DNA of 64,000 nt, from IMG/VR virus record IMGVR_UViG_3300021061_000001; one strand, written 5' to 3'. The stretch comes from a virus. The position numbers and the translations under genes were made by a program. Below the pieces are notes generated by a model, which had not been told where the DNA came from, searched no databases, and saw nothing but the letters and a program-made list of their open reading frames with translations. Positions 5,569-64,000 of this stretch are shown here, in pieces (within the stretch, counting starts at the first letter, position 1; each line of letters opens with the position of its first letter).

Positions 5569-5880
5569 ATGTTCGCAGGCTTCGTACAACTCGGCTCGAC
5601 CATCACCGGCGCGGTCTTGACCAGGAACGCCAGCACTCAGGTGCCGACCGACGCGGCCAGCCCACCGACCTTCCGTATCTACGGCCCGTCGGGCCTGATG
5701 GCCAACGGCACCGGCACGGCCTCGCTCCTGGACTCGTCCAACACGGACGGGCTGTACTCCTGGTCCTACACGCCGGCCGGGGCCAACGGCTTCGCGGCCG
5801 GGGTGACTTACACGATCCTGTTCCAGTACACGGTGTCCGCAGTGGTGCAGGCCCAGATCGTGACCTTCACGGTGACCTAA
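5569..5880 (+). CDS. Small beta-rich virion-module protein, paralog A
   Basis: Starts 2 nt after the previous stop. MFAGFVQLGSTI..NAS..PTFRIYGPSG parallels the next gene. Confidence 0.65.
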   Translation: MFAGFVQLGSTITGAVLTRNASTQVPTDAASPPTFRIYGPSGLMANGTGTASLLDSSNTDGLYSWSYTPAGANGFAAGVTYTILFQYTVSAVVQAQIVTFTVT

Positions 5881-6300
5881 ATGTTCCTCGGTGATTTCCA
5901 ACTTGGCCGCACGGTGATCCTGGACGTTCAGACGACGAACGCCTCGGGGACGCCGACCGTGCCGGACGATGCGCCGACGTGCCGCATCTATTCGGCGGCC
6001 GGGGCGCTCGTGCAGTCGAAGTTGATGCCGGTGGTGGAGCCGGAACAGGTGACGGGCCTGTTCGGCCTGCCTGTGTTCCTGGGCCTGGAGTTCGCCACGG
6101 GCTACTATCTGGTGCTCCTCCGCTGGGCGATCTCGGGGACGACTTACGCGGAAGCGCGCAGCTTCCGCATCGTGGCGGGCGGGGACGTGGAGGGGGCCGT
6201 GGTCGACATGCACTGGTTCCAGCGGCCACACGCGAACTATCTGGTCCATGTCCTGGAGTCGGGCTACGTGCGCAAGGGGCAGAATCCCAGCCTAACGTGA
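5881..6300 (+). CDS. Small beta-rich virion-module protein, paralog B
   Basis: The ATG directly follows the previous TAA. MFLGDFQLGRTV..NASG..PTCRIYSAAG matches paralog A. Confidence 0.65.
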   Translation: MFLGDFQLGRTVILDVQTTNASGTPTVPDDAPTCRIYSAAGALVQSKLMPVVEPEQVTGLFGLPVFLGLEFATGYYLVLLRWAISGTTYAEARSFRIVAGGDVEGAVVDMHWFQRPHANYLVHVLESGYVRKGQNPSLT

Positions 6301-17999: not shown

Positions 18000-18218
18000 T
18001 CATTCGCTGGCTACTGGACCCGACGGCGACAACCCAGGAGGCGCTGCTGCTGGCGTCCCATTGCGGCGGAAGGCGGCTCTGGCCTCCTCGTAGCGCCGCC
18101 ACGCCGCCTGCGCCGCCTTCCACAGCCGCCCGCGCATCCGCCAGTCATCGCAGGCCAGCGCCACACCAAGAGCGTCCTGGCACTCATCCAGCAGCCGATG
18201 CAGTTCCGCTTGCGTCAT
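18000..18218 (-). CDS. Small helical protein (72 aa)
   Basis: ATG 18218 is preceded by AGGAGG. High GC3. Confidence 0.45.
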   Translation of the reverse strand: MTQAELHRLLDECQDALGVALACDDWRMRGRLWKAAQAAWRRYEEARAAFRRNGTPAAAPPGLSPSGPVASE

Positions 18219-18561
18219 CGGTGGATCGCCTCCTGTCGCGGATCTTGTAGTACGCGGTCAGGCACGCTTGGCACCAACTCCGCCTGATCCGCCGGCCGTG
18301 GCAGGTCGTCGTCGGGAACGAGCCCTTGGGATAGGCGACCTTGCAGCGCGAGCAGGTCTTGGGTTCTTCCGGCGGGTTCCTGGCGGCCTGTTCGGCGTCG
18401 GCCTCGCTGGCGAACACGGCGAGCAGGGTATCGCCCTGCCATACCCCATAGCCGCCCGCGATCGGCCCCACGCGGCAGGCCCGGCGGCGCTCGTGAGCGG
18501 GCGGGGCCTTCTCGCGGAGACGCAGGACGTACTTGTCGGTGCTGGTAAAGGCCATGACCAT
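18184..18561 (-). CDS. Small zinc-ribbon-like protein
   Basis: Cysteine pairs CSRCK ... CHGRR ... WCQAC. ATG 18561 was chosen for its purine-rich GGAAAGGA upstream; the track start at 18579 is an alternative. Confidence 0.45.
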   Translation of the reverse strand: MVMAFTSTDKYVLRLREKAPPAHERRRACRVGPIAGGYGVWQGDTLLAVFASEADAEQAARNPPEEPKTCSRCKVAYPKGSFPTTTCHGRRIRRSWCQACLTAYYKIRDRRRSTDDASGTASAAG

Positions 18562-31182: not shown

Positions 31183-32130
31183 GTGTCCACGATCCGCCTT
31201 TTCTCGGGCAACCAGCCCGAACCAGCCCTCACCGTGCGCCAGGTCATCGCCGCCTACCTTGACCAGAAGGCGCTCGACCACCTCGCCGGCGCTTTCAGCC
31301 TCAAAGCCCTGGAATCGGCCCGCCATTACCTTGGCCGCTTCGCCAAGGACTTCGGCGATCTGCCCGTCAGCCAGTGCCACAAGAACGATCTGACACACTG
31401 GCTGCTCAAGCACCCGGAATGGGAATCGACCTTCACCCGCCACGATGCCGTCGGCCGCGTGGTGACGTGCTTTTACTGGGCCGAGGACGAGCTGGGCATC
31501 GTCAGCCGCTACCGCCGCCCCAAGTTCGTGGGCGCCCCCCTGCGCCCACGGCCGGCCATCGAGCCGGCCGAATACCGCGCCATGCAGCGCTATGCTCGCC
31601 GGGCCAGGAACACCCGCCGCATGCTCCGCACGCGAAACGTATTCCGTGCCGCCTTGTCCTTCCTGTGGCGGACGGGTGCCCGGCCCTGCGAGATGCGCAC
31701 CGCTCAATGGACCGAACTCGACTGGCGCCGAGAGATCATCGTCACCAAGAACAAGACCGAGAAGGCGACCGGCAAGGACCGCATGATCCCCGTCGGCTCC
31801 GTCATGCACCTCTTGCGCTGGCTCTACCGCCGCAAGAAGCCCGGTCAGACGCACATCTTCACCAACACCCTGGGAAAGCCCTGGACGGCCGACCGCTTCG
31901 CCAAGGAGTTCCGCCGCTACGCCAACCTGGCCGGCGTCCGCCAGAAGGTGAGCGCCTACTGCCTGCGCCATGGCATGTGCGTCCGGCTGCTGGAGAAGGG
32001 CGAGGGGGAGAGGCAGATAGCCGACGTGCTCGGCCACGAATCGACCCGCTACGTGAGCTGGTACGGCAGAACGACCCGGACCATGGCCGACTACCTCAAC
32101 GACGTGATTCGCCGGAAGAAGCGGCCCTGA
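31183..32130 (+). CDS. int: Tyrosine recombinase / phage integrase
   Basis: FLWRTGARPCEM (Arg I), CLRHGMCVRLL (H-x-x-R), VLGHES (His) and a YVSWY tyrosine region, in canonical order. GTG start, uncertain. Confidence 0.9.
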   Translation: MSTIRLFSGNQPEPALTVRQVIAAYLDQKALDHLAGAFSLKALESARHYLGRFAKDFGDLPVSQCHKNDLTHWLLKHPEWESTFTRHDAVGRVVTCFYWAEDELGIVSRYRRPKFVGAPLRPRPAIEPAEYRAMQRYARRARNTRRMLRTRNVFRAALSFLWRTGARPCEMRTAQWTELDWRREIIVTKNKTEKATGKDRMIPVGSVMHLLRWLYRRKKPGQTHIFTNTLGKPWTADRFAKEFRRYANLAGVRQKVSAYCLRHGMCVRLLEKGEGERQIADVLGHESTRYVSWYGRTTRTMADYLNDVIRRKKRP

Positions 32131-42516: not shown

Positions 42517-42546
42517 TTGACTGAGCGAGCGGCTCGGCTGTAAATT
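42517..42546 (+). promoter_or_regulatory. Candidate rightward sigma70-like promoter
   Basis: TTGACT-18 nt-TAAATT. The spacer contains the palindrome CGAGC-G-GCTCG. Confidence 0.45.
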
Positions 42547-42734
42547 GTGAGCAAGAAGCCGCAAGGTGGCGGCGCATCCACACCTCGAAAAAGCGGACCA
42601 AGAGATGCAAGCAAGCGTCGTTGGCAACCCAAAAACCCCCACAAGATAACGCCCGCTCGGATTTGGCAAGGAACCGACAACCAGCATTTGGCGACATGGG
42701 CGACTGATCCCCGCCTGTGACACCAGCAAAACAG

Positions 42735-42777
42735 GTAGCCGTCGAGGGCTCGACACCTCGGCGGCTATTTTCGTTTT
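42735..42777 (+). terminator. Strong rho-independent terminator 45 nt upstream of the first late gene
   Basis: 12-bp stem TAGCCGTCGAGG / CCTCGGCGGCTA (one G-U pair) with an 8-nt loop, followed by TTTTCGTTTTT. Confidence 0.7.
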
Positions 42778-42822: not shown

Positions 42823-43971
42823 ATGGCAGACGAAGCCCCCCTGTTCCAAGCGGACACGTCGGAAGCCGCTCCCGCCAGCACCACTCCCGAACCTTCCGCG
42901 CCCGAAACACAGCCGGTCGCGGAAGCGTCTCCAGAACAACCGGCAGCGCAGCCAGCGCAGCCGTCAAGCCAGCCCGATACCGCAGCACAACAAGCCGCCC
43001 AGCCCGCCCAGCAGCCGTGGTGGTCCAGTCTGGGGGCCGACGAGTCCGCCGCGCAAGCCGCCGTCAACGGCATGCGGCAGCAGCTCGAACAGATGCGGCA
43101 ACTCGCGCCTTACGCGAACTTCGTGGCGCAGTATCCGCAGGAAGTCCAGGAGTTCATTCGGGCCCGACACCAGAAGCAGCAACCGGCCGCCGCGCCCGCC
43201 ACGGAAAAATCGTGGTACGACGGGCTGTACGAGGCCCCGGAATACGATCCGGCCTGGCTGACGATGGTGCAGAAGAACCCGACCACGGGCCTGATCGAGT
43301 CTTTGCCGGGCTACCCGGCCGAAATCGGCCTCAAAGTGCAGGCCGCCTTGCACCACCAGCAGCAAGTGCAGCGGCGTTTCCTGGAAAATCCGCCCGAGTT
43401 CATCAAGCCCTTCGCGGAGCGGATCGCCGAGCAGGTGGCCGAAAAGGTCGTGCAGCGGCACCTGGGAGGCCGCGACGAACAGCAACTTCAGCGCGACTTC
43501 ATCAACCAGAACAACGGCTGGCTCTACGAGCGCGACGACAAGGGCCAGCAGCGCATGACGCACGTCTGGGATCCCAACACCGGGCGGCAGGTGCAGACGC
43601 CGGTCCTGTCCGTGTGGGGCAAGCGCTACCGCGACCTGCTCAACGAGCGGCACGCCTACCAGATGCAGCGCTTCGGCCAGGCCGACTACCAGGATCAACT
43701 GGCGTGGGCGCTGGCGCACGTCAAGAACGAATACTACGAGTGGGCGCAGCAGCACGGCCAGCCACAGGCCGCAGCGCAGCCCGCTCCGGCACAGCCTGCC
43801 GCCGACCCGCGCAGTCCGCGCGAGAAGGCCAATGAGCAGTGGCTGGCCGGCCAGCCCAAGGCCGGTTCTCGGCCGTCCAACGGAAACACCGCACCCGCCG
43901 ATACCCCCGTGACCAACAACACGTTCGCATCCCACCTGCTGCGTGAGCTGGAAACAGCCGGCGCGGCATAG
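42823..43971 (+). CDS. Scaffolding-like protein (Gln/Ala/Pro-rich, directly upstream of capsid gene)
   Basis: ATG 42823 (MADEAPLFQ). Helical and Q-rich. Function inferred from position and composition only. Confidence 0.5.
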   Translation: MADEAPLFQADTSEAAPASTTPEPSAPETQPVAEASPEQPAAQPAQPSSQPDTAAQQAAQPAQQPWWSSLGADESAAQAAVNGMRQQLEQMRQLAPYANFVAQYPQEVQEFIRARHQKQQPAAAPATEKSWYDGLYEAPEYDPAWLTMVQKNPTTGLIESLPGYPAEIGLKVQAALHHQQQVQRRFLENPPEFIKPFAERIAEQVAEKVVQRHLGGRDEQQLQRDFINQNNGWLYERDDKGQQRMTHVWDPNTGRQVQTPVLSVWGKRYRDLLNERHAYQMQRFGQADYQDQLAWALAHVKNEYYEWAQQHGQPQAAAQPAPAQPAADPRSPREKANEQWLAGQPKAGSRPSNGNTAPADTPVTNNTFASHLLRELETAGAA

Positions 43972-43993
43972 GGCCAGTTTGGGGGTTTAGGAC

Positions 43994-45142
43994 ATGGACC
44001 AAGCAACGCTTCGCGCGATCAACACCACGATCGCCAAGTATTTCAAGACCGTCGAAGAGGCGGTTTTGCGCAAGCGCGTTGTCCTCGCCATGCTCATGAG
44101 CAAGGGCAATATCCACATGGGGGCCTCGGGCCTCAAGATGAACTGGAAGATCCGCTTCAGGCGCACCAGTTCGCAGCCGCTCCTGGGCGGCCAGACCCTG
44201 ACCTTCGTGCCGCGCGACCAGTGGCGCACGGCCGAACTGGGCTGGCGCGGTTTCGCCTCCACCAACTCCATCGAGGAGTTCGAGCTGGAGATGAACAAGG
44301 GCAAGGAAGCCATCGTCAACGTCTGGTCCAACGCGGCCAAGCTGCTCGCCTCGGACATCGAGCAGAACTTCGCCGACCAGCTCTACACCGACGGCGAGGC
44401 TTCCGGCCGCGAGTCGGACCTGCACGGCTTCGAGTCGATCTTCGGCACCAACGGCGTTTCGACCAAGCGCCCCATCGGCATCAACGACGATAGCTACGCC
44501 GGTGTCGCCACCGACCTGGCCTCCGAGGGTGGTTCGTGGTCCACGACCGGCACCAATACGTCGTACACCGACTGGCCCGACGGCCGCGGCGACTACCACT
44601 ACGACTTCTTCACCCCGCTCGTGGTCAACTACTCCTCCACGATCTCGACCAGCGCCGGCGCCGGCAACATCGGCTGGTCGGCCTCGACCAAGACCTGGCT
44701 CAACACCTGCATCGAGGCGCTGCGATTCGGCATCCTGGGCTGCTCCAAGAACGACGGCCCCGACGCCAAGATGGACCTCATCATCCTCGAACAGGCCATG
44801 ATGCGGGACCTCAAGAACAAGCTCCAGGCCGAGGAGCAGATCACGGTCACGAAGAACACCGGCCCGGGCAGCCCCTACGCCCTGGGCTTCACCGACACGA
44901 TCAACGTGGACGGCGTGGACTGCATGTGGGAGTACGGCGTGCCGGCCAACGTCGGCTACGGCCTGCCTTTGGGCCTCATCGAGCTGCACTCGCTCAAGCC
45001 CAAGCTGTTCAACCCCGGCGGCCCGGACTTCCGCCCCGAGGATCAGTCCTGGCGGATCTGGACCAAGTTCATGGGCAATCTCAAGTTCGGCAACGAGAAG
45101 GGCGGCGTGCGGAACTTCCTCAAGTTCGCCGCTCTCGGCTAA
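43994..45142 (+). CDS. Major capsid protein
   Basis: 382 aa, follows the scaffold-like gene. Size and sequence character are consistent with HK97-fold capsid proteins. No search was possible. Confidence 0.75.
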   Translation: MDQATLRAINTTIAKYFKTVEEAVLRKRVVLAMLMSKGNIHMGASGLKMNWKIRFRRTSSQPLLGGQTLTFVPRDQWRTAELGWRGFASTNSIEEFELEMNKGKEAIVNVWSNAAKLLASDIEQNFADQLYTDGEASGRESDLHGFESIFGTNGVSTKRPIGINDDSYAGVATDLASEGGSWSTTGTNTSYTDWPDGRGDYHYDFFTPLVVNYSSTISTSAGAGNIGWSASTKTWLNTCIEALRFGILGCSKNDGPDAKMDLIILEQAMMRDLKNKLQAEEQITVTKNTGPGSPYALGFTDTINVDGVDCMWEYGVPANVGYGLPLGLIELHSLKPKLFNPGGPDFRPEDQSWRIWTKFMGNLKFGNEKGGVRNFLKFAALG

Positions 45143-45197
45143 GTCGTCATCCGCGTTCGCTTAACCATCAACCGCTCACGATTTCGAGGATATTGCC

Positions 45198-45818
45198 ATG
45201 AACAGTCCCTTGATGGAACGCGGCCAGACGGCATACGGCCCGACCGCGTCCATTGACACCAACGCTCTCAAGTTCGTGCACTGGGAGGGCAAGGAGTTCA
45301 CCTTCGAGGACATCGACTACAACGATGTCTCGGTGGGGACCAAGCCGCTCCGCTCCAAGGCCATGGTCAAGTGCCGCATCGTGCGGAATATGTCGAGCGC
45401 CACCCTGCTTCCCAAGCGGCTGGCGCGGCTCAAGAAGTCGGGCCTCGACATCCTATCCCGCGTGGACGGCTATGCCTGCACCACGGCGGACGGCCCGTGC
45501 TACCCCATCGACGAGTTCCTGCCCGCGGCCGGTGTGCGGCACGGCGATCTCTTTTACGTCGTCGTCGAAGGCCCGGCCATGGTGCTCACCGACATTGCCT
45601 CGGGGGCCAACAACCTGATCTCGGTCGGCGACTGGCTCGTGTCCCTGACCGGCGCCACCACCGGCGCCACCACGTCGGGCCGCGTCAAGCCGCAGGACCT
45701 CACCGGCGCCACCGCCCTGCTCGGCAACGAGATCCAGCACCGCATCGGTCGGGCGCTGTCGGCCCAGACCACGGCCAACACGGCCAACAGCCTGCTCATG
45801 AACGTGACGAAGTTCTGA
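45198..45818 (+). CDS. Capsid decoration/cement-like beta-barrel protein (tentative)
   Basis: Directly after the capsid gene. GDLFYVVVEGPAMVLTD..ISVGDWLVSL..GRV resembles the DUF2190-type pattern (recalled). Confidence 0.5.
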   Translation: MNSPLMERGQTAYGPTASIDTNALKFVHWEGKEFTFEDIDYNDVSVGTKPLRSKAMVKCRIVRNMSSATLLPKRLARLKKSGLDILSRVDGYACTTADGPCYPIDEFLPAAGVRHGDLFYVVVEGPAMVLTDIASGANNLISVGDWLVSLTGATTGATTSGRVKPQDLTGATALLGNEIQHRIGRALSAQTTANTANSLLMNVTKF

Positions 45819-45888: not shown

Positions 45889-46632
45889 ATGTCGGCCACC
45901 TGTCACCCCCGCCACATCCAGATCGACTACCGCCCTGGCACCCAGGACGAAGAAGCCTTCCGCGAAGTCATGTCCGAAAACTGCTACCGCCTCCCTTCGC
46001 GGCTCCGCGCCGACGACGTGGTGGTGGACGTAGGCGCGCACATCGGCAACTTTTCCCTGGCCTGCATCCTGCGCGGTGCTGGCCGCGTCCTGGCCTTCGA
46101 GCCGGACCGGGACAACTTCCGCTATCTGACCAGCAACCTCGAGCGCTGGATCGGCGCCACCGCCCGCAACGCCGCCGTCTGGCGCAGCGACAAGATCGAA
46201 CAGGTCCATTTCACCGGCTACCCGGCGCAGAACGCCTTCCTGGACGCCGCCCCCTACGCCAACGCCTGCGGCTCGTGCATGCCGCAGGTGAACGTGAGCG
46301 GGGTCAATGAGCGCCGCCCCGTGGAATCCGTGCCCCTGGACCAGATCCTGGAAGGCATCGCGGCGGACGGCAAGCGCGTGCGGCTACTCAAACTTGACTG
46401 CGAAGGAGCCGAGTTCCCCATCCTCTACACCTCCAAGCGGCTCGATCTCGTTGACGAGATTTGCGGCGAACTGCACGATTTCGGCCTGCGCGGCCTGCCG
46501 CCGATGGTGGAGGGATTCACCGACTACGACATGGACGAGATGGCCTACTACCTGGAGGGCCAGGGCTTCGACGTGGACGTGGAGCCCAATAGCCAGAGCC
46601 GGCAAATGTTCCTGTTCTGGGCCAGGCGCTAG
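45889..46632 (+). CDS. FkbM-family SAM-dependent methyltransferase
   Basis: VVVDVGAHIGNFSL ... RVLAFEPDRDNFRYLTSNL ... LLKLDCEGAEFPIL is the Methyltransf_21/FkbM motif series. Confidence 0.85.
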   Translation: MSATCHPRHIQIDYRPGTQDEEAFREVMSENCYRLPSRLRADDVVVDVGAHIGNFSLACILRGAGRVLAFEPDRDNFRYLTSNLERWIGATARNAAVWRSDKIEQVHFTGYPAQNAFLDAAPYANACGSCMPQVNVSGVNERRPVESVPLDQILEGIAADGKRVRLLKLDCEGAEFPILYTSKRLDLVDEICGELHDFGLRGLPPMVEGFTDYDMDEMAYYLEGQGFDVDVEPNSQSRQMFLFWARR

Positions 46633-46660
46633 CCGCCACACCCTTACCCCCGAGGACACG

Positions 46661-47584
46661 ATGACCCCCGCGAAACTGAACATTCTCCTGGCCGGCTTCC
46701 CCTATGGCGGCAACGGCGCGACCAGTTCCGAGGTGCCGTGCCTGCGCCACTGGTTCGCCAAGGTGGTGGTCGCAGCCAAGAAGGACGAGCGCGTTGGCGA
46801 CATCTGGGCCATGGATTTCTCGGACACGCCCATCACGATGACCCGCAACGCGGCCGTGCTCAAGGCAAGACAACTGGGGGCCGACGTGCTGGTCATGTTC
46901 GATTCGGACCAGAAGCCCGACATGCTCCTGGGCCAGGACCCGACCGCCAAGCCCTTCTTCGAGTCCAGTTTCGACTTCCTCTACGAGCGCAAGCAGCAAG
47001 GAAAGGCGACCTCGATCTGCGCCCCTTACTGCGGCGCGCCGCCCGAGCGGGTGCCGTTCTGCTTCACCTGGACCACCGACGACCCGGACCATCCCGACGG
47101 TCACGCACGGATGCGGCTCCTGACCCGCGAGGAAGCGGCCCTGCGCATGGGCATTCACGAGGTTCCGGCTCAGCCGACCGGCCTCATCATGTTCGACATG
47201 GACCTGTTCGAGATCACCGACCCCAAGCACGAGTTCGAGCGCATGCTTCAGGCCGGTTATCCGCGGCAGATCGCTCAGGCGGTCACCAAGCCGTGGTTCT
47301 ACTACGAGTGGCCGGACATTTATGCGGCCCGCAAGGACTCGACCGAGGACGTGACGGCCACGCGCGACATGGGGCTCGCGTGCATCAACGCCCGCGGCTA
47401 CAACCCGCTCTTTTGCAACTACGACGCCTGGGCCGGGCACTGGAAGCCGGAATGCGTTGGCAAGCCCAGGCCGATCAGTGGCGATGCCGTGAACGAGAAG
47501 TACCGCACTGCGGCCCTCAAAGGCAAGCAGTCCGGCGAAAGGCTGGTGCATGTCCGTGCCAACGGACAGCTTGTGAGCGCCTAG
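46661..47584 (+). CDS. GT-A-fold glycosyltransferase-like protein
   Basis: ATG 46661. TMTRNAAVLKARQLGADVLVMFDSDQ (DxD-type motif) and a later STEDVTATRDM block, as in family-2-like glycosyltransferases (recalled). Confidence 0.6.
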   Translation: MTPAKLNILLAGFPYGGNGATSSEVPCLRHWFAKVVVAAKKDERVGDIWAMDFSDTPITMTRNAAVLKARQLGADVLVMFDSDQKPDMLLGQDPTAKPFFESSFDFLYERKQQGKATSICAPYCGAPPERVPFCFTWTTDDPDHPDGHARMRLLTREEAALRMGIHEVPAQPTGLIMFDMDLFEITDPKHEFERMLQAGYPRQIAQAVTKPWFYYEWPDIYAARKDSTEDVTATRDMGLACINARGYNPLFCNYDAWAGHWKPECVGKPRPISGDAVNEKYRTAALKGKQSGERLVHVRANGQLVSA

Positions 47585-47627: not shown

Positions 47628-47945
47628 ATGTTCGCACAGGCTCCGCCAGACTGGCTCAACAACTGGGAGCGCTTCGGCTATGGCGGCATCAGCTTCCTCA
47701 TGGCGGCCACGATGTTCTGGTTCTACGGCCGCCACTGGTTTCTGCGGCAGATCAAGCTGGCGGACATCTGCATCCGGGACAAGCGGATGTCGCGCAAGAG
47801 GCTCAGATGGGCGCACAGGCGGCTTCAAGAGGCCCTGCAAGGACTGGAAGAGGCACAGGCGGAACTGGTGGCCACCAAGGCCAAGGTGATCGAACTCGAA
47901 CTGAGGCTCAGCCATGCAGACCGTCCTGGTGATCGAGGACAGTAG
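47628..47945 (+). CDS. Membrane-anchored coiled-coil protein (105 aa)
   Basis: One hydrophobic helix (GYGGISFLMAATMFWFYG) followed by LQEALQGLEEAQAELVATKAKVIELELRL. The 3' end overlaps the receiver gene by 32 nt. Confidence 0.55.
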   Translation: MFAQAPPDWLNNWERFGYGGISFLMAATMFWFYGRHWFLRQIKLADICIRDKRMSRKRLRWAHRRLQEALQGLEEAQAELVATKAKVIELELRLSHADRPGDRGQ

Positions 47946-48345
47946 CGAACTGGCCAAATTGTGGCAGCAGACCCTACCCGGCTTCGGCTTGCATGTGAGG
48001 CTGGCCGGCTCGCTCAGGGAGGCATTCGTGGCGCTAGCAGCAGAGGTCCCCGACTGCATCGTCCTTGATCTGTGCCTGCCAAACGGTGCCGGGGTCAACT
48101 GCGTTAAGGCAGTGCGGGCCGTCGCGGCCGACACCCCGTTGATCGTGGTCACTGGCTCGATCGAGCCGGGGCTGCGGGAAAGATGCCTGGCGGCAGGCGC
48201 GGATGTGTACTTGGAAAAGCCGACCGGGGTCAAGGACATGGTGCGGGAGATCAAGGTGGCGATCGCGACGCGCAGCACGCTGGCCGAGTGCGGCCGGCAT
48301 ATCGAGTCGGCCCGGCGCGGGCTGGCCTGCACGCGAGGGATGTGA
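47914..48345 (+). CDS. Stand-alone response-regulator receiver (CheY-like) protein
   Basis: VLVIEDS (E8-D9), CIVLDLCLPNGAG (D52), LIVVTGS (T80) and DVYLEKP (K102). All canonical receiver residues are present and there is no output domain. Confidence 0.85.
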   Translation: MQTVLVIEDSSELAKLWQQTLPGFGLHVRLAGSLREAFVALAAEVPDCIVLDLCLPNGAGVNCVKAVRAVAADTPLIVVTGSIEPGLRERCLAAGADVYLEKPTGVKDMVREIKVAIATRSTLAECGRHIESARRGLACTRGM

Positions 48346-48974
48346 TGAGCGAAGAACGCCTGCATGCTCTGGAAGGCGCGTTGACGGAACTGCGTACCCG
48401 GCTGTCCGCCGTCGAAACGCATGCCGTCGAGATGGACCACCGGATCGACGTGCTGGAGGAACCCAACCCAATCGTCGTCAAGGCCAGGGGCTGGCTCGGC
48501 TGGCTGTGGGAAAACAGGCCCGAGTGGCGAACACTCCTGCCTTACCTCATCATCGCCGCCCTGCTCCTGCGCGGCGGTCAGGGCTGCGACATCCGCTGCG
48601 ACCGGCTGCCGATCCCCGACTGGGTCAATCCGATTCCTGTCCCCAAGGGGGACCTGCGCGTCGTGGTCATCTACGAGTCGGCCGATGAGCACAAACTACC
48701 GGCCGGTCAGCGCAACATCATCATGGGCCAGAAATTCCGCGACTGGGTGACGGCCCACTGCGGCAAGTCCGATGGCAGGACGGCCGACTTCCGCGCCTAC
48801 GACAAGGACACCGACACCGCCAACGATTATCCGTGGGCGCAAGAGGCCATGAAGCGGCCGCGTGCCGAACTGCCGTGGATCGTGGTCATCAAGGGAACCT
48901 CGATCGTTCACGAGGGCAAATTGCCCGCCGACCCGGACCAGGCGATTTCGCTCTTGTCGAAGTACGGAGCCTGA
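48345..48974 (+). CDS. Coiled-coil / single-TM protein with C-terminal alpha-beta domain
   Basis: The ATG overlaps the receiver stop (TGATG). It has an N-terminal coiled coil, the TM helix WRTLLPYLIIAALLL, and a ~130-aa C-domain of unknown family. Confidence 0.65.
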   Translation: MSEERLHALEGALTELRTRLSAVETHAVEMDHRIDVLEEPNPIVVKARGWLGWLWENRPEWRTLLPYLIIAALLLRGGQGCDIRCDRLPIPDWVNPIPVPKGDLRVVVIYESADEHKLPAGQRNIIMGQKFRDWVTAHCGKSDGRTADFRAYDKDTDTANDYPWAQEAMKRPRAELPWIVVIKGTSIVHEGKLPADPDQAISLLSKYGA

Positions 48975-48975
48975 G

Positions 48976-49785
48976 ATGCCCGACATCATCACCATCACCG
49001 ACGACAACTATCGTGGCTTCATCGACTCGGCCGATGACATGCCGGGCGACCACAAGGGGCTCACCCCTCGCGACTTCGCCACCTTCCCGGTCGGCCACTA
49101 CGCCAACGCTGGCCCGATCGATTTCCCCCTCTTCTCCGATGAGCAGATCGAGAAGGAGATCAGGAACCAGGAGGAGAACGGTTCCTCGCTCGAACATCTG
49201 CGAATGACTTACGACGGCGGCAAGCCGATCGACGCCCTGGACCAGAACGGGCAGGGCTATTGCTGGGCCTACTCGACGACTTCCTGCGTGACCCTGGCGC
49301 GGGCCAAGCAGGGCATGCCCTACGAGCCGCTGTCGGGGCACATGATCGGCTGCATCATCAAGAACTATCGCAACCAGGGCGGTTGGAACGCGCAATCGAT
49401 GCAGTTCGCGCAGGAGCATGGCGTGGCCTCGCAAAAGTTCTGGCCCGCCAAGTCGATGTCGCGCTCCAACGACACGCCCGAGATGCGCGAGGACGCCCGC
49501 AAGCGCCGCATTACCGAATGGTGGGACCTGTCGGACGATCCCGAGACGGTCAAGCGGCAGTTGGCGACCCTGCTCCTGCTCAACTGCCCGGTGGCGGTGG
49601 ACTTCAACTGGTGGTTGCACTCGGTCTGTGCCATCCGGCTCATGTCGTGGCGGCCGTTCAAGATCAGGATTCTCAATTCGTGGTCCAATAGCTGGTCGAA
49701 ATTGGGCATGGGCGACCTCGAAGGGGGCCGGGCCATTCCCAACGGCGCGATCGCGCCGCGCGTCATCACCGCCAAGGCGGCCTGA
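48976..49785 (+). CDS. Papain-like (C1-family-like) cysteine peptidase
   Basis: DQNGQGYCWAYS (Gln/Cys), NWWLHSVCAI (His) and ILNSWSNSWSKLGMG (Asn-Ser-Trp), in papain order. No signal peptide. Confidence 0.75.
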   Translation: MPDIITITDDNYRGFIDSADDMPGDHKGLTPRDFATFPVGHYANAGPIDFPLFSDEQIEKEIRNQEENGSSLEHLRMTYDGGKPIDALDQNGQGYCWAYSTTSCVTLARAKQGMPYEPLSGHMIGCIIKNYRNQGGWNAQSMQFAQEHGVASQKFWPAKSMSRSNDTPEMREDARKRRITEWWDLSDDPETVKRQLATLLLLNCPVAVDFNWWLHSVCAIRLMSWRPFKIRILNSWSNSWSKLGMGDLEGGRAIPNGAIAPRVITAKAA

Positions 49786-49799
49786 AAGGAAGGTGTTCC

Positions 49800-50351
49800 A
49801 TGAAGAAGTTCATCGACAACCGGCACGTCTACATCGGTCTGGGCATCTTCGCGGCTGTGCTGGTGCTGGCCATCTCGCTCGGCGCCTTCCAGTCGAAAGC
49901 CAACCCCATCCTGCCGCCGCCTCCCGTGCCGGATCAGGTGCCTGTCATCGACGACGACAAGCGACCGGACGGCTTTCTGGAACCCAAACCGGAACCCGTC
50001 AAGAAACAGGCGAGCAGCCCTTATTGTGATCCGTCCTGCTCCTGCGGATGCCAGGGGGGCGGGTCGTGCGTCTGCTACATGACCATGCGAGCCAGAGCGA
50101 TCAAGGAGGGGGCTGGTCTGGTGGTCTGGATCGGCTGCCGGCGCGGCACAGGCTACGACGATCATTTGCACTGCGAAGTGAAGTCGCTGCCTGGCTTCGA
50201 GGGGTTCAAGGGGCATGTCATCAGCTACGTCAGGAACGGCGAGTTGTGGTTCGCCAGGGCGGTGCCGCACGCGGCCATGCAGGCCCCGAGGCAACCAGTG
50301 TTCTTCCAGCCGGGCGGTGGAGTCGTGCGCATGCGCGGACGCTCGTGCTGA
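49800..50351 (+). CDS. Signal-anchored Cys-rich protein (183 aa)
   Basis: N-terminal TM (VYIGLGIFAAVLVLAISLGAF), a Pro-rich linker, and a CDPSCSCGCQGGGSCVC cluster. Confidence 0.65.
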   Translation: MKKFIDNRHVYIGLGIFAAVLVLAISLGAFQSKANPILPPPPVPDQVPVIDDDKRPDGFLEPKPEPVKKQASSPYCDPSCSCGCQGGGSCVCYMTMRARAIKEGAGLVVWIGCRRGTGYDDHLHCEVKSLPGFEGFKGHVISYVRNGELWFARAVPHAAMQAPRQPVFFQPGGGVVRMRGRSC

Positions 50352-50395
50352 TAGGTCCGATGTCGGCTCCGGTGCGGGGCCAGAGGAGACATGCC

Positions 50396-50614
50396 ATGGA
50401 AAACGAAGTGCAAAAGGCCATGATGGCGGCGGCGGCGGTCGGCCTGAACCTTACCGAGGAGCAGGTCAGGGCGATCCTGGACCTCATCTACAGCGGCGGC
50501 GATTCGGTCGTGCTGGCCACGGCCAACCCGTTCGACAACCTGGCCTGGGCCATCGCCAAGCCGATTCTCAAGCAGTTCGAGGCCAAACTGATCGCGATTC
50601 TGACCAAGAAGTGA
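50396..50614 (+). CDS. Small protein (72 aa)
   Basis: ATG 50396 follows GAGGAGA. Confidence 0.55.
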   Translation: MENEVQKAMMAAAAVGLNLTEEQVRAILDLIYSGGDSVVLATANPFDNLAWAIAKPILKQFEAKLIAILTKK

Positions 50615-50617
50615 TCC

Positions 50618-50728
50618 ATGGATCGCTGGATCATTCGAGCCCTGGTGCTCCTGGCTGCCCCGATCTGGGTGCCTTACATCGCCTGGCTCGTGGCCAGGGA
50701 TGTTCTGGCCGAGATGAAAAAGAGGTGA
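50618..50728 (+). CDS. Tiny single-TM protein (36 aa; below track cutoff)
   Basis: MDRWIIRALVLLAAPIWVPYIAWLVARDVLAEMKKR. It fills the gap between the flanking genes exactly. Confidence 0.3.
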   Translation: MDRWIIRALVLLAAPIWVPYIAWLVARDVLAEMKKR

Positions 50729-50731
50729 CCC

Positions 50732-51103
50732 ATGTCCCGCTCTCTCGTGCTCCTGAAACTCGTCCTGCTCCTGGCCCCGGTCGTGCCCGCCGAGCGCAAG
50801 GAGGGCCAGCAGCCGGTGCCGGATCTGGTGGCGACCACTCAATTCGGTTCGATGACCCAGAGCGGCAAGGTGCTGACGATCCAGGGCACCTACTGGTCGG
50901 CGACGGGCGAAATCCGCGAGGACGGCACGATCTACCTCTTGTGGATCACCAGGGGCGGCCGCATCGCTCCGGGCGTGTACCGGCAAGACGGAGACACGCT
51001 TGTGGGAAATTGGGGCTGGGTCGATGACGTGGAGATCGCCTTGGACGGCGAACTGATCGGGCAAACGTGTCGCGAGACGCTGTACCTGACGCGGCCCAAG
51101 TGA
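50732..51103 (+). CDS. Secreted protein (signal peptide, 123 aa)
   Basis: MSRSLVLLKLVLLLAPVVPAE followed by a beta-rich mature part. Confidence 0.65.
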   Translation: MSRSLVLLKLVLLLAPVVPAERKEGQQPVPDLVATTQFGSMTQSGKVLTIQGTYWSATGEIREDGTIYLLWITRGGRIAPGVYRQDGDTLVGNWGWVDDVEIALDGELIGQTCRETLYLTRPK

Positions 51104-57044: not shown

Positions 57045-58088
57045 ATGTCTCTGAACGTAGCAATCGAACCTCGTCTGGCGAAGGCCCTCAAGGACGACGG
57101 ACTGGCCCGCGACCTCGTAACGGACATCAACGCCGTCCTCGACGGCAGCCTGGGCGACACGACTCCCGGCACGGTCGAAGCCTCCAAGGTCGTGGTGGTG
57201 GATTCCAACAAGGACATCTCCAGTTTCCGCAACGTCGGGCTCACCGGCGACCTGACCCTGGCCAGCGGCGGCAATCTCGTCCTCAGCGGGGCAACGGGCG
57301 AGTCGGAAATCATCCTCACCGACAACCTGGCCGATGCCCTGTCCGTCAAAATCTCGGGCGGCGCGGACTTCTTCGTGTTCTGCACCACCGACTCGGCCGA
57401 GAAGCTGACCCTCGCCCAGGACTTCCACCTCATCGGCGGCAAGGACTTGGTATTCACGGGGGCAACCGGCGAGTCGGAGATCCACCTGACGGATAACCTG
57501 GCGGACGCTCTTTCGGTCAAGATCGCTGGCGGGGCCGATTTCCTCGTCTGCGTCACCACCGATTCCGCCGAGAAGATCAACATTTCGCAGGACGTTCACT
57601 TGATCGGCGGCAAAGACCTCTTGTTCGTCGGGGCCACGGGCGAGTCCGAAATCCACCTGACCGACAACCTCGCCGATGCCCTGTCGGTGAAGATCGCGGG
57701 CGGTGCCGACTTCCTGGTGTTCGTGACCACGGACTCGGCCGAAGGGATCACGGTCGGCCAGCATCTGACCATGGCCGACGCCAAGAACATCATCCTCAAC
57801 ACCACGACCGGCACGAAGATCGGCACGGCCACGACCCAGAAGCTGGGCTTCTACAACGCCACGCCGGTCGCGCAGCCCGCCGCGCTGACCGCGCAGCTTA
57901 CGACCATCACGCATACCGCTCCGGGTAGCGACGACTTCGCCATCCAGAACCTGACCAATTCCTCGCCCTTCGGCTTCGTGACGGCGGACGAAGGCAACAC
58001 GGTCCTCAAGGTGATCGCCAACTTGCAGGCCAGACTGGCCGAAGTGGAAGCCCGTCTCGAAGCTCTCGGACTCGTGGCCGCCAACTAA
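57045..58088 (+). CDS. Fibre/decoration-like protein with three 57-aa tandem repeats
   Basis: GATGESEI-LTDNLADALSVKI-GGADF...TTDSAEK...LIGGKDL occurs three times. The C-terminal TKIGTATTQKLGFYNATPVAQP and coiled-coil LEALGLVAAN are common in phage fibre-like proteins (recalled). Confidence 0.75.
   Translation: MSLNVAIEPRLAKALKDDGLARDLVTDINAVLDGSLGDTTPGTVEASKVVVVDSNKDISSFRNVGLTGDLTLASGGNLVLSGATGESEIILTDNLADALSVKISGGADFFVFCTTDSAEKLTLAQDFHLIGGKDLVFTGATGESEIHLTDNLADALSVKIAGGADFLVCVTTDSAEKINISQDVHLIGGKDLLFVGATGESEIHLTDNLADALSVKIAGGADFLVFVTTDSAEGITVGQHLTMADAKNIILNTTTGTKIGTATTQKLGFYNATPVAQPAALTAQLTTITHTAPGSDDFAIQNLTNSSPFGFVTADEGNTVLKVIANLQARLAEVEARLEALGLVAAN
57288..57800 (+). repeat. 3 x ~171-bp tandem coding repeat
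   Basis: GATGESEI starts at aa 82, 139 and 196 of the 57045 gene. Confidence 0.85.
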
Positions 58089-63718: not shown

Positions 63719-64000
63719 GTGCCTTCGAGGTTGATGCTTTCTGGGGTTGGCTCTCGCGCGGCGGCTGCCGCGACGGGCGCTCTTTTGCAAGAGCCGTCCG
63801 GGGATGCGCTGCTGCTCGAAACGGGCGGCACGGACGAAATCAGGTTGGAGTCTGGATCAAGTAGCGATCTGACCGACCTCACCGAACTGTCGGTTCCCGA
63901 CCTGGCCGACATGATCTACGTTGTGGACGATCCGGCTGGCACGCCTCTGTCGCGCAAGATGTCCTTGAACAGGCTTCTCGGTCTGCGGCAGTCGGTCTGC
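63719..64000 (+). CDS. Second tail-fibre-like protein (3' end outside window)
   Basis: GTG 63719 opens a frame that runs to the window edge. It contains LTELSVPDLADMIYVVDDPAGTPLSRKMSLNRLL. Confidence 0.6.
   Translation, partial: MPSRLMLSGVGSRAAAAATGALLQEPSGDALLLETGGTDEIRLESGSSSDLTDLTELSVPDLADMIYVVDDPAGTPLSRKMSLNRLLGLRQSVC

Follow-up and report, generated by a model that had tools for sequence, protein, structure and literature searches.

By what means does a tailed phage leave its host when no lysis gene can be recognised in its genome? The virus record IMGVR_UViG_3300021061_000001 raises this question, and in particular a cluster of eight + strand genes, g1 to g8, at positions 47628-51103 of the analysed stretch of 64,000 nucleotides (hereafter called the window). 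A sequence-only reading had proposed that these genes form one envelope-directed lysis module with a stand-alone receiver embedded in it. We found that the conserved part is smaller and had been overlooked: a trio consisting of an exported thioredoxin-fold protein (g3 type), a leaderless C1A cysteine protease (g4 type) and an exported thioredoxin-like or Cys-rich protein (g5 type). We tentatively read the cluster, at a probability of about 0.4, as a late-expressed, envelope-directed lysis or egress cassette in which a thiol protease works with periplasmic redox partners, optionally gated by phosphorylation.

Conservation and composition of the trio

In 88 of a sample of 92 peptidase loci (IMG/VR supplied 80 and genome bins 12), BLAST clustering placed a g3 relative immediately 5' of the peptidase and in the same orientation, often with an overlap of 1-4 nt; the other four loci have the peptidase at a contig end. 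Downstream, within 1.2 kb 3' of the peptidase, 57 of 78 loci (73%) carry a predicted exported open reading frame (ORF) with at least two cysteines, compared with about 8 of 67 controls (~12%). Because g3 relatives lie upstream and exported Cys-containing ORFs downstream with this regularity, we concluded that the trio is the conserved unit. A phmmer comparison of all eight proteins with the ORFs of the 92 loci recovered g3 homologues in 80 loci and receiver homologues in four, one of these being the window's own contig; for g1 and g5-g8 there were none outside an identical contig. The eight genes had been taken for a single module. With homologues limited to g3, g4 and the receiver (in three other loci), and none detectable in other loci for g1, g6, g7 and g8, a conserved eight-gene module is ruled out.

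A close syntenic relative, locus L096, shows which genes stay together. It has the capsid-side genes, a glycosyltransferase-like gene, g3, the peptidase, both terminase genes and the portal gene in common with the window; a membrane protein other than g1, 104 aa long and ending in a helical tail, precedes g3, and different small genes replace g5-g8. L096 retains g3 and the peptidase and has no match to g1 or the receiver, which argues against the receiver being the centre of the system. Our search of the literature on phage C1 peptidases and thioredoxins, planctomycete phage lysis and phage receivers found no description of the trio; the individual domains are familiar, and it is their combination that is undescribed in the literature searched.

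All eight ORFs were present and as tightly packed as had been claimed, with intergenic spacings from g1 to g8 of -32, -1, +1, +14, +44, +3 and +3 nt and Shine-Dalgarno-like (GGAG/GAGG-like) motifs ahead of seven of the eight ATG starts. The overlap between the g3 start and the receiver stop was confirmed as well, the ATG sharing one base with the TGA (TGATG). Here and below, transmembrane segments and signals were assigned from Kyte-Doolittle hydrophobicity and inspection rather than by a dedicated predictor.

The protein encoded by g4 had been called a papain-like Cys peptidase from its CW...H...NSW motifs. A hidden Markov model (HMM) search supported this with PF00112 at 30.3 bits (cut-off 20.7), the alignment being limited to residues 89-212, and Q90, C96, W97, H215, N234, S235 and W236 are invariant in 37 relatives (the catalytic codons are Q90 at 49243-49245, C96 at 49261-49263, H215 at 49618-49620 and N234 at 49675-49677). 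A profile of the 37 relatives retrieved plant papain-like enzymes and cathepsins from the PDB (1e-10). The AlphaFold 2 (AF2) model, with a predicted local distance difference test score (pLDDT) of 92.9 and a predicted template-modelling score (pTM) of 0.92, matched cathepsins K, L and S and xylellain in Foldseek with a probability of 1.00. On this evidence, g4 is a true C1A papain-family peptidase with a predicted two-lobed papain fold. Procathepsins were also matched, and because these pro-forms aligned over 270-306 columns, against ~215-235 for mature enzymes, the model suggests that the N-terminal ~70 aa of g4 occupy a prodomain-like position. Xylellain, which was among the top structural matches, and other bacterial C1A enzymes have the same fold and a comparable N-terminal segment; identity to these comparators is 15-20%, and g4 has no detected I29 (Pfam) prodomain, signal peptide or other N-terminal hydrophobic segment. 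It matched no PHROG. Another viral papain-family protease, V-cath of baculoviruses, degrades the host as the infection ends; unlike g4, it belongs to eukaryotic viruses and works with a chitinase.

Endolysin domains of the CHAP, NlpC/P60 and Amidase_5 families resemble g4 in being Cys-His thiol hydrolases of papain-like topology, and they are used against the cell wall. According to one report, the activity of cysteine-peptidase endolysins is sensitive to thiol oxidation (PMC8586454). Unlike CHAP and NlpC/P60 proteins, g4 is a C1A enzyme proper, with Gln-Cys-His-Asn, a cathepsin-like fold and the prodomain-like extension. All three approaches (Pfam, the profile search of the PDB and the fold comparison) gave C1A, so that an identification of g4 as CHAP or NlpC/P60 is ruled out. 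We counted at least 333 metagenomic relatives of g4. There were none in 50,697 GenBank phage records, and relatives in cellular genomes amounted to 12 short contigs among 185,579 species genomes.

The protein upstream, g3, had been described as a coiled-coil/transmembrane protein with an unknown C-domain. The protein is present as described, and its C-domain is now identified as, on the evidence of the AF2 model, a thioredoxin fold without CXXC. An N-terminal helix is followed by a hydrophobic anchor (~residues 60-76), a Pro-rich linker and the C-terminal domain (residues 101-209, nt 48645-48971), which was modelled with pLDDT >92 in the order beta-alpha-beta-alpha-beta-beta-alpha. The top Foldseek matches were all thioredoxins, with template-modelling scores of ~0.55 (target-normalised), and the best 50 PDB matches were nearly all thioredoxins or thioredoxin-like proteins. 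Near-invariant residues are Q122, C139, R150 and P177, the last at the cis-Pro position, and P194 is invariant or nearly so. CXXC is absent from g3 and from the family consensus; the sole conserved cysteine, C139, lies elsewhere in the fold. There was no thioredoxin Pfam match, and the family is without a Pfam model or PHROG. Its members mostly begin with a predicted Sec-type signal peptide or anchor and continue with a variable middle that looks Ig-like by eye, a Pro-rich linker and the conserved end domain of ~110 aa. A single-sequence search of 5.8 billion proteins recovered g3 itself and nothing else, and a profile was needed to reach its relatives; the family profile matched 6,526 clusters at E<=1e-3 and 1,530 at 1e-30 among 1.84 billion representative proteins. 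The 50,697 GenBank phage records held no match to g3.

A remote pair was observed at L100:10001-11781. Its g3-like gene retains the signal peptide, the Ig-like middle and the Pro-rich linker, has a helical C-domain instead of the thioredoxin fold, and overlaps the gene for a 346-aa protein with papain-like motifs (QQTGSC...H...ENQWS). Because of this pair, the theme may extend beyond the form made of C1A and thioredoxin-fold proteins.

The product of g5 had been described as signal-anchored and Cys-rich. This description stands, and to it we add that the C-domain belongs to a thioredoxin-like family that is always found 3' of the peptidase. Besides a Cys cluster, g5 has a Pro-rich linker and a thioredoxin-like domain at residues 93-153 (nt 50076-50258). 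An HMM of this domain matched nine loci, including the window's contig L001 and the near-duplicate pair L043/L044; all matches lie -3 to +595 nt from the peptidase stop, and some have CXXC. Although no Pfam or PHROG family covers g5 itself, thioredoxin families are the commonest Pfam matches among the genes 3' of the peptidase. CXXC is present in 32 of the 57 loci with an exported Cys-containing ORF, and many of the downstream partners are thioredoxins that are anchored in the membrane and carry CEPC, CGPC or CPAC. From their sequences, the CXXC partners look like extracytoplasmic thiol-disulfide oxidoreductases.

In the bacterial periplasm, DsbG and DsbC protect single catalytic cysteines, such as those of L,D-transpeptidases, and ResA, TlpA and CcmG are anchored thioredoxins. 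The trio is similar in that exported or anchored thioredoxin folds, some with a ResA-like CEPC, stand beside an enzyme that needs one free Cys. It differs in that g3 has no CXXC, that no link to DsbD or CcdA is known, that the protease has no export signal and that the genes are phage-encoded.

Many of the downstream Cys-rich proteins (in L003, L046, L049, L051, L053, L072, L078 and L099) have 'PPQAP'/'PQST'-type repeats right behind the signal peptide, which could be a sorting or modification motif. Lipobox-like sites were seen in a few (L062, L093).

These Pro-rich 'PPQAP' segments on exported Cys-rich proteins, together with thioredoxin-like, glycosyltransferase and methyltransferase genes nearby and one weak PHROG match to 'bacteriocin production or immunity', are what would be expected of a maturation cassette for a secreted disulfide-bonded and possibly glycosylated Cys-rich product, bacteriocin-like or adhesin-like. 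The sublancin operon of SPbeta, with its peptide, peptidase-transporter, thioredoxin-like BdbA/B and glycosyltransferase, is loosely comparable in gene content. The Cys-rich proteins have their own Sec signals and would thus not need a cytoplasmic leader peptidase; moreover, a transporter is absent and the Cys-rich partners are non-homologous across loci. We regard this explanation as very unlikely.

The receiver and the coiled-coil membrane protein

The receiver g2 was confirmed by HMM search (PF00072 at 71.3 bits, cut-off 30.2), and the canonical residues that had been listed, E8-D9, D52, T80 and K102, were all counted in the translation (the codon of the phospho-acceptor D52 is 48067-48069). 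The domain covers residues 4-113, corresponding to profile positions 1-110 of 111, and is followed by a tail of ~25 aa; g2 also matched PHROG 731 (E=8.6e-23). Its label as CheY-type did not hold. The best PDB matches were the receivers of KdpE, PrrA, MtrA and PhoB at 44-62 bits, with KdpE at the top (62 bits) and CheY at 34.7 bits. With OmpR/KdpE-type receivers closest and no che genes nearby, g2 as a chemotaxis CheY is ruled out; it is 'CheY-like' only in being stand-alone.

The sequence-only reading had called for a neighbourhood survey of receiver and C1 peptidase pairs, and we found that the pairing recurs in five further loci. Single-query receiver searches recovered the queries themselves and nothing else. 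In a profile search of 1.3 Mb of loci, every receiver match lay within 2.2 kb of a g3-peptidase pair; the further loci were L020, L031, L051 (two copies) and L011, and the contig carrying P0010 is the sixth case, with PAS, receiver, g3 and peptidase genes in a row. L011 has a PAS-like neighbour too. The peptidases of the five further loci are 36-56% identical, and the Asp and Lys of the receiver are invariant among four phage receivers. Because the receiver is present in ~7% of loci and lacking from the close relative L096, we consider it a recurrent but optional add-on.

Pfam and PHROG results were summarised as the top 25 families listed for each gene set (25 of 28 for the early set), and no kinase family (HisKA, HATPase_c) was among the Pfam matches listed for the other window proteins. 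Because of this, g2 would, as far as gene content tells, depend on a host kinase or on acetyl phosphate as its phosphoryl donor.

Upstream of the receiver, g1 encodes a short N-terminus, one hydrophobic segment (~residues 17-36) and a strongly basic coiled-coil tail, which is predicted to be cytoplasmic by the positive-inside rule. It is holin-like in architecture only, and matched no Pfam family. Proteins with this architecture, predicted to have the N-terminus outside, one transmembrane segment close to it and a basic coiled coil on the cytoplasmic side, precede the receiver in all four loci in which the receiver lies before g3, with no detectable sequence similarity among the four. They are found directly 5' of the receiver in L020, L031 and L051, and 5' of g3 in L096 and L099. 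ORFs with a transmembrane segment and a charged coiled coil occur within 2 kb upstream of g3 in 12 of 66 loci, compared with 0-2% of control windows.

A stand-alone complete receiver beside a protease and a candidate membrane partner brings to mind CpdR-ClpXP, RssB and CheY-FliM. The arrangement here differs in that g2 is closest to OmpR/KdpE, that a kinase, an adaptor domain and a link to ClpXP are lacking, and that the receiver occurs in ~7% of loci. Single-domain receivers such as CpdR and RssB control proteolysis, which could point to g4 as a cytoplasmic protease for host takeover or counter-defence, controlled by a receiver in some phages and functionally unrelated to its exported neighbours. 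The missing export signal of g4 would fit, as would one Acb2/Tad1-like gene nearby in one locus, and receiver, PAS protein and peptidase would all be cytoplasmic, so that a direct interaction would be possible. This explanation leaves aside the overlap of an exported thioredoxin-fold gene with the peptidase start in nearly all testable loci and the exported thiol or Cys-rich gene downstream in 73% of them, and a receiver is there in just ~7%. We consider it quite unlikely.

Lysis or another role

The absence of a recognisable lysozyme, amidase, holin or spanin had been stated for the window, and it holds for the 3.85 kb of the genome outside it as well. The Pfam and PHROG searches gave no lysozyme, amidase, transglycosylase, peptidoglycan-peptidase, holin or spanin among the families listed for all other called proteins of the window with 50 aa or more, and none of the five proteins encoded by the 3.85 kb had a Pfam match. 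A six-frame phmmer search of the genome with T4 E, lambda R, T7 3.5 and P22 gp19 gave no match, nor did the same four proteins against the ORFs of 96 related loci; four related contigs (~+/-10 kb) and one more (~+/-6 kb) contained no lysis Pfam families. A muralytic endolysin was thus detected neither in the cluster nor in the window nor in the rest of the genome, and no canonical lysis cassette was found in the complete genome; the find outside the window that the sequence-only reading had named as a refutation of its proposal thus did not turn up. No spanin PHROG was matched by the cluster, and g8 has no lipobox Cys; weak Rz-like matches (E=5e-4 and 1.7e-3) came from other loci.

The host probably belongs to the Planctomycetes: eight of the 12 genome-bin matches of the peptidase are from Planctomycetota and one is from Verrucomicrobiota, and the extracytoplasmic function (ECF) sigma family PF07638 was weakly matched in the window. 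Protein rich in cystine and proline is unusually abundant in planctomycete envelopes. The cluster had been proposed to be envelope-directed, and this is supported, with a gene set that is predicted to mix compartments. We favour a role in lysis or egress because no other lysis gene was found, because the compartments are mixed and because the host is probably a planctomycete. A leaderless hydrolase flanked by exported and membrane proteins, as in holin-endolysin-spanin cassettes, argues in the same direction. In the lambda S-R-Rz/Rz1-type cassettes of phages of Gram-negative bacteria, too, genes for a small membrane protein, for a hydrolase without a leader and for exported partners stand close together on one strand. 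In the lineage of this phage (the window, L096, L023, L059 and L072), the large terminase gene follows the trio at a distance of 1.5-3 kb; in the genome of this phage, no other lysis genes are detectable. Unlike those cassettes, the members have no significant similarity to holins, endolysins or spanins, the enzyme is a C1A protease, its partners have thioredoxin folds, and other lineages have the trio among head genes.

For such a cassette we infer compartments, an order of events, a substrate and a role of the receiver as follows. The g4 protease would build up in the cytoplasm late in infection, as canonical endolysins do. A small membrane protein, for which g1 is the best candidate and g7 a possible one, would permeabilise the inner membrane and let g4 enter the periplasm. 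In this oxidising compartment, pre-positioned thioredoxin-fold partners could keep or restore the catalytic thiol, or could open disulfide-cross-linked envelope proteins; g4 would then cut the protein links of the envelope, and virions would be released. In this phage and ~7% of its relatives, the receiver beside a membrane-anchored coiled-coil protein might tie the timing of these events to a host kinase or acetyl phosphate, acting via the coiled coil that the membrane protein is predicted to extend into the cytoplasm. More doubtful is the wider proposition that phages of Planctomycetes and their relatives exit their hosts by an unrecognised system of papain protease and periplasmic thioredoxin-fold proteins that replaces the muralytic endolysin, cuts a protein-rich, disulfide-stabilised envelope and is gated, in a subset, by a phosphorylatable receiver that senses two-component or acetyl-phosphate signals of the host.

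Several points weigh against a role in lysis. No homology links any of the eight proteins to lysis; the matches of g1 to a PHROG holin/anti-holin (E=0.099) and of the g3 N-terminus to XhlA (E=0.092) are sub-threshold. Many genes remain without annotation, and a muralytic enzyme invisible to Pfam and PHROGs may be among them, which is possible because Planctomycetes possess peptidoglycan and C1A peptidases are not known to cleave it. Among 150 small membrane proteins near the pair that were searched against PHROGs, there was one good holin match and a few weak spanin or 'hol-like' ones. A contact between g3 and a cytoplasmic protease is hypothetical because most g3 relatives carry predicted cleavable signal peptides. 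The host was assigned from metagenome bins. Genes for glycosyltransferases and methyltransferases are found repeatedly just 5' of the g3-peptidase pair, which hints at another theme; locus L100 has a sugar epimerase beside its pair. Finally, the trio lies right after the major capsid gene in L098 and on the P0010 contig and between portal and capsid genes in L097. A purely positional argument for lysis is weakened because the trio sits among head genes in these lineages; lysis cassettes are not usually found so close to capsid and portal genes, and morons typically are.

As a moron, the trio would use its exported proteins and the protease to remodel host surface or periplasmic proteins, for example receptors, and would serve superinfection exclusion or alter the surface of the lysogen rather than lyse the cell. 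Its variable position within structural gene blocks, its exported members and its accessory neighbours (glycosyltransferases, methyltransferases and one Acb2/Tad1-like anti-defence gene) agree with such a role, as does the temperate nature of the phage. In the window, however, the trio has no + strand terminator-like site or promoter-like match of its own. It is also very widespread and diverges with the phage lineages (30-60% identity), and it is nearly absent from cellular genomes, although a moron would be expected in integrated prophages of isolates. A moron would, in addition, leave the missing lysis genes unexplained, and on balance we think this role unlikely.

The vicinity of capsid genes in several lineages could also mean that g4 is a head or tail maturation protease and its neighbours accessory proteins of virion morphogenesis. 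The window gave no match to a recognised prohead protease, and many g3 relatives have the Ig-like middle seen by eye; Ig-like domains are common on virions. Against this, signal peptides place g3 and the downstream partners outside the cytoplasm, the site of head assembly, and where the trio lies with respect to portal and capsid genes varies. The prohead proteases known to us are serine or herpesvirus-like enzymes, not C1A. We give this explanation the smallest chance of those considered here.

If the trio is indeed the lysis or egress effector, it would explain the exit of phages without a recognisable endolysin from a major, poorly cultured bacterial group, and would give a function to the g3 family, dark matter with thousands of representative clusters. 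Protease-plus-redox logic would then join holins, endolysins, spanins and disruptins, and the variants with a receiver would be a testable case of a phage that senses host phosphorylation at a late step of infection. If the function is not lysis, the trio is a widespread phage cassette of another kind; whatever it does, a conserved three-gene cassette absent from cultured phages is a well-defined experimental target.

Genome context and neighbouring genes

The window has a G+C content of ~65%, and its genes are those of a tailed phage with a temperate lifestyle. The same sequence is present, in rotated form, in an ENA contig of 68,103 bp, which adds 3,853 bp (L094:15903-19755) after window position 64000 before it joins window position 1. 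Because these 3,853 bp connect the end of the window to its start, we concluded that the complete genome is circular or terminally redundant and measures ~67.85 kb (67,853 bp), with 3.85 kb outside the window. Tail and fibre genes lie on the + strand at 0-18 kb; at 18-42 kb, the - strand carries genes for replication, recombination and regulation. A second + strand run extends from 42.8 kb to the end of the window and contains the cluster, the large terminase and portal genes and other virion genes. The early - strand set includes an integrase, RusA, an exonuclease, a DnaD-like loader, helix-turn-helix (HTH) repressors and sigma-factor or LuxR-type regulators; the integrase and the repressor-type HTH genes are the sequence features that mark the phage as temperate. 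The genes of the cluster and other features are collected in Table 1.

Table 1. Positions of the cluster genes and of other features in the window
Feature	Position	Strand	Basis or remark
g1, 105-aa membrane protein	47628..47945	+	ORF
g2, stand-alone receiver, 143 aa	47914..48345	+	PF00072
g3, 209 aa, anchored, predicted C-terminal thioredoxin fold	48345..48974	+	AF2 and Foldseek
g4, leaderless C1A cysteine peptidase, 269 aa	48976..49785	+	PF00112, AF2
g5, 183 aa, signal-anchored, Cys cluster, thioredoxin-like C-domain	49800..50351	+	HMM
g6, 72-aa helical protein	50396..50614	+	ORF, GAGGAG motif upstream
g7, putative 36-aa single-pass membrane peptide	50618..50728	+	ORF; least certain gene
g8, 123 aa, N-terminal signal-like hydrophobic segment	50732..51103	+	ORF
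Sigma-70-like promoter match	42517-42546	+	Consensus match; sole one in 41.5-52.5 kb
15-bp-stem, T-tailed hairpin	42733-42770	+	Terminator-like, consensus match; just before the co-directional run containing the cluster
Three conserved genes opening the late run	42823-45818	+	Family not recognised
Lar-like restriction-alleviation protein	18184-18561	-	PHROG 5558, E=3.6e-5
Tyrosine integrase	31183-32130	+	Pooled Pfam and PHROG match in the early-gene set; assigned via N-terminal sequence

The remaining genes of the cluster gave few matches. No significant Pfam or PHROG match and no homologue in the 92 loci was found for g6. For the putative 36-aa transmembrane peptide g7, the ORF, spacing and hydrophobicity were confirmed, although public gene callers do not predict it; it is flanked by 3-nt gaps to g6 and g8, and this spacing and the hydrophobic sequence are all that supports it. 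Matches of g8 to Pfam and PHROG were sub-threshold, and the other loci held no homologue of it.

The single promoter match in 41.5-52.5 kb is at chance level (shuffle mean 1.0). Because a consensus scan found no further + strand terminator-like site between the hairpin and 52.5 kb, the cluster may be part of one long late transcript. Of the three genes that open the late run, the first encodes a Q/P/A-rich, scaffold-like protein, and none of the three had a match in Pfam, the PDB or GenBank phages. A homologue of the second gene lies ~1.8 kb past the portal gene in L059, and because of this position after the portal the three may encode a scaffold, the major capsid protein and an accessory head protein and have been relocated upstream of the terminase. 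Directly 5' of the cluster, 45889-47584 encodes a methyltransferase of the FkbM type and a second protein of 307 aa. The latter contains a DSD motif, looks by eye like a GT-A glycosyltransferase and has no Pfam match. After the cluster follow the gene for a 136-aa protein and the large terminase gene.

In the virion region, 57045-58088 encodes a 347-aa protein with two copies of the peptide TGESEIHLTDNLADALSVK at a distance of 57 residues; the protein also matches DUF2807 (adhesin head) weakly. From its sequence, it looks like a repeat-built fibre or decoration protein rather than the capsid protein. The pooled Pfam scan gave a weak CheD match (PF03975, E=2e-4) from one late protein outside the 20 that were scanned individually. 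Two adjacent genes of the tail region, at 5569-5880 and 5881-6300, encode paralogues with 31% identity over 105 aa (E=1e-7), a tandem duplication.

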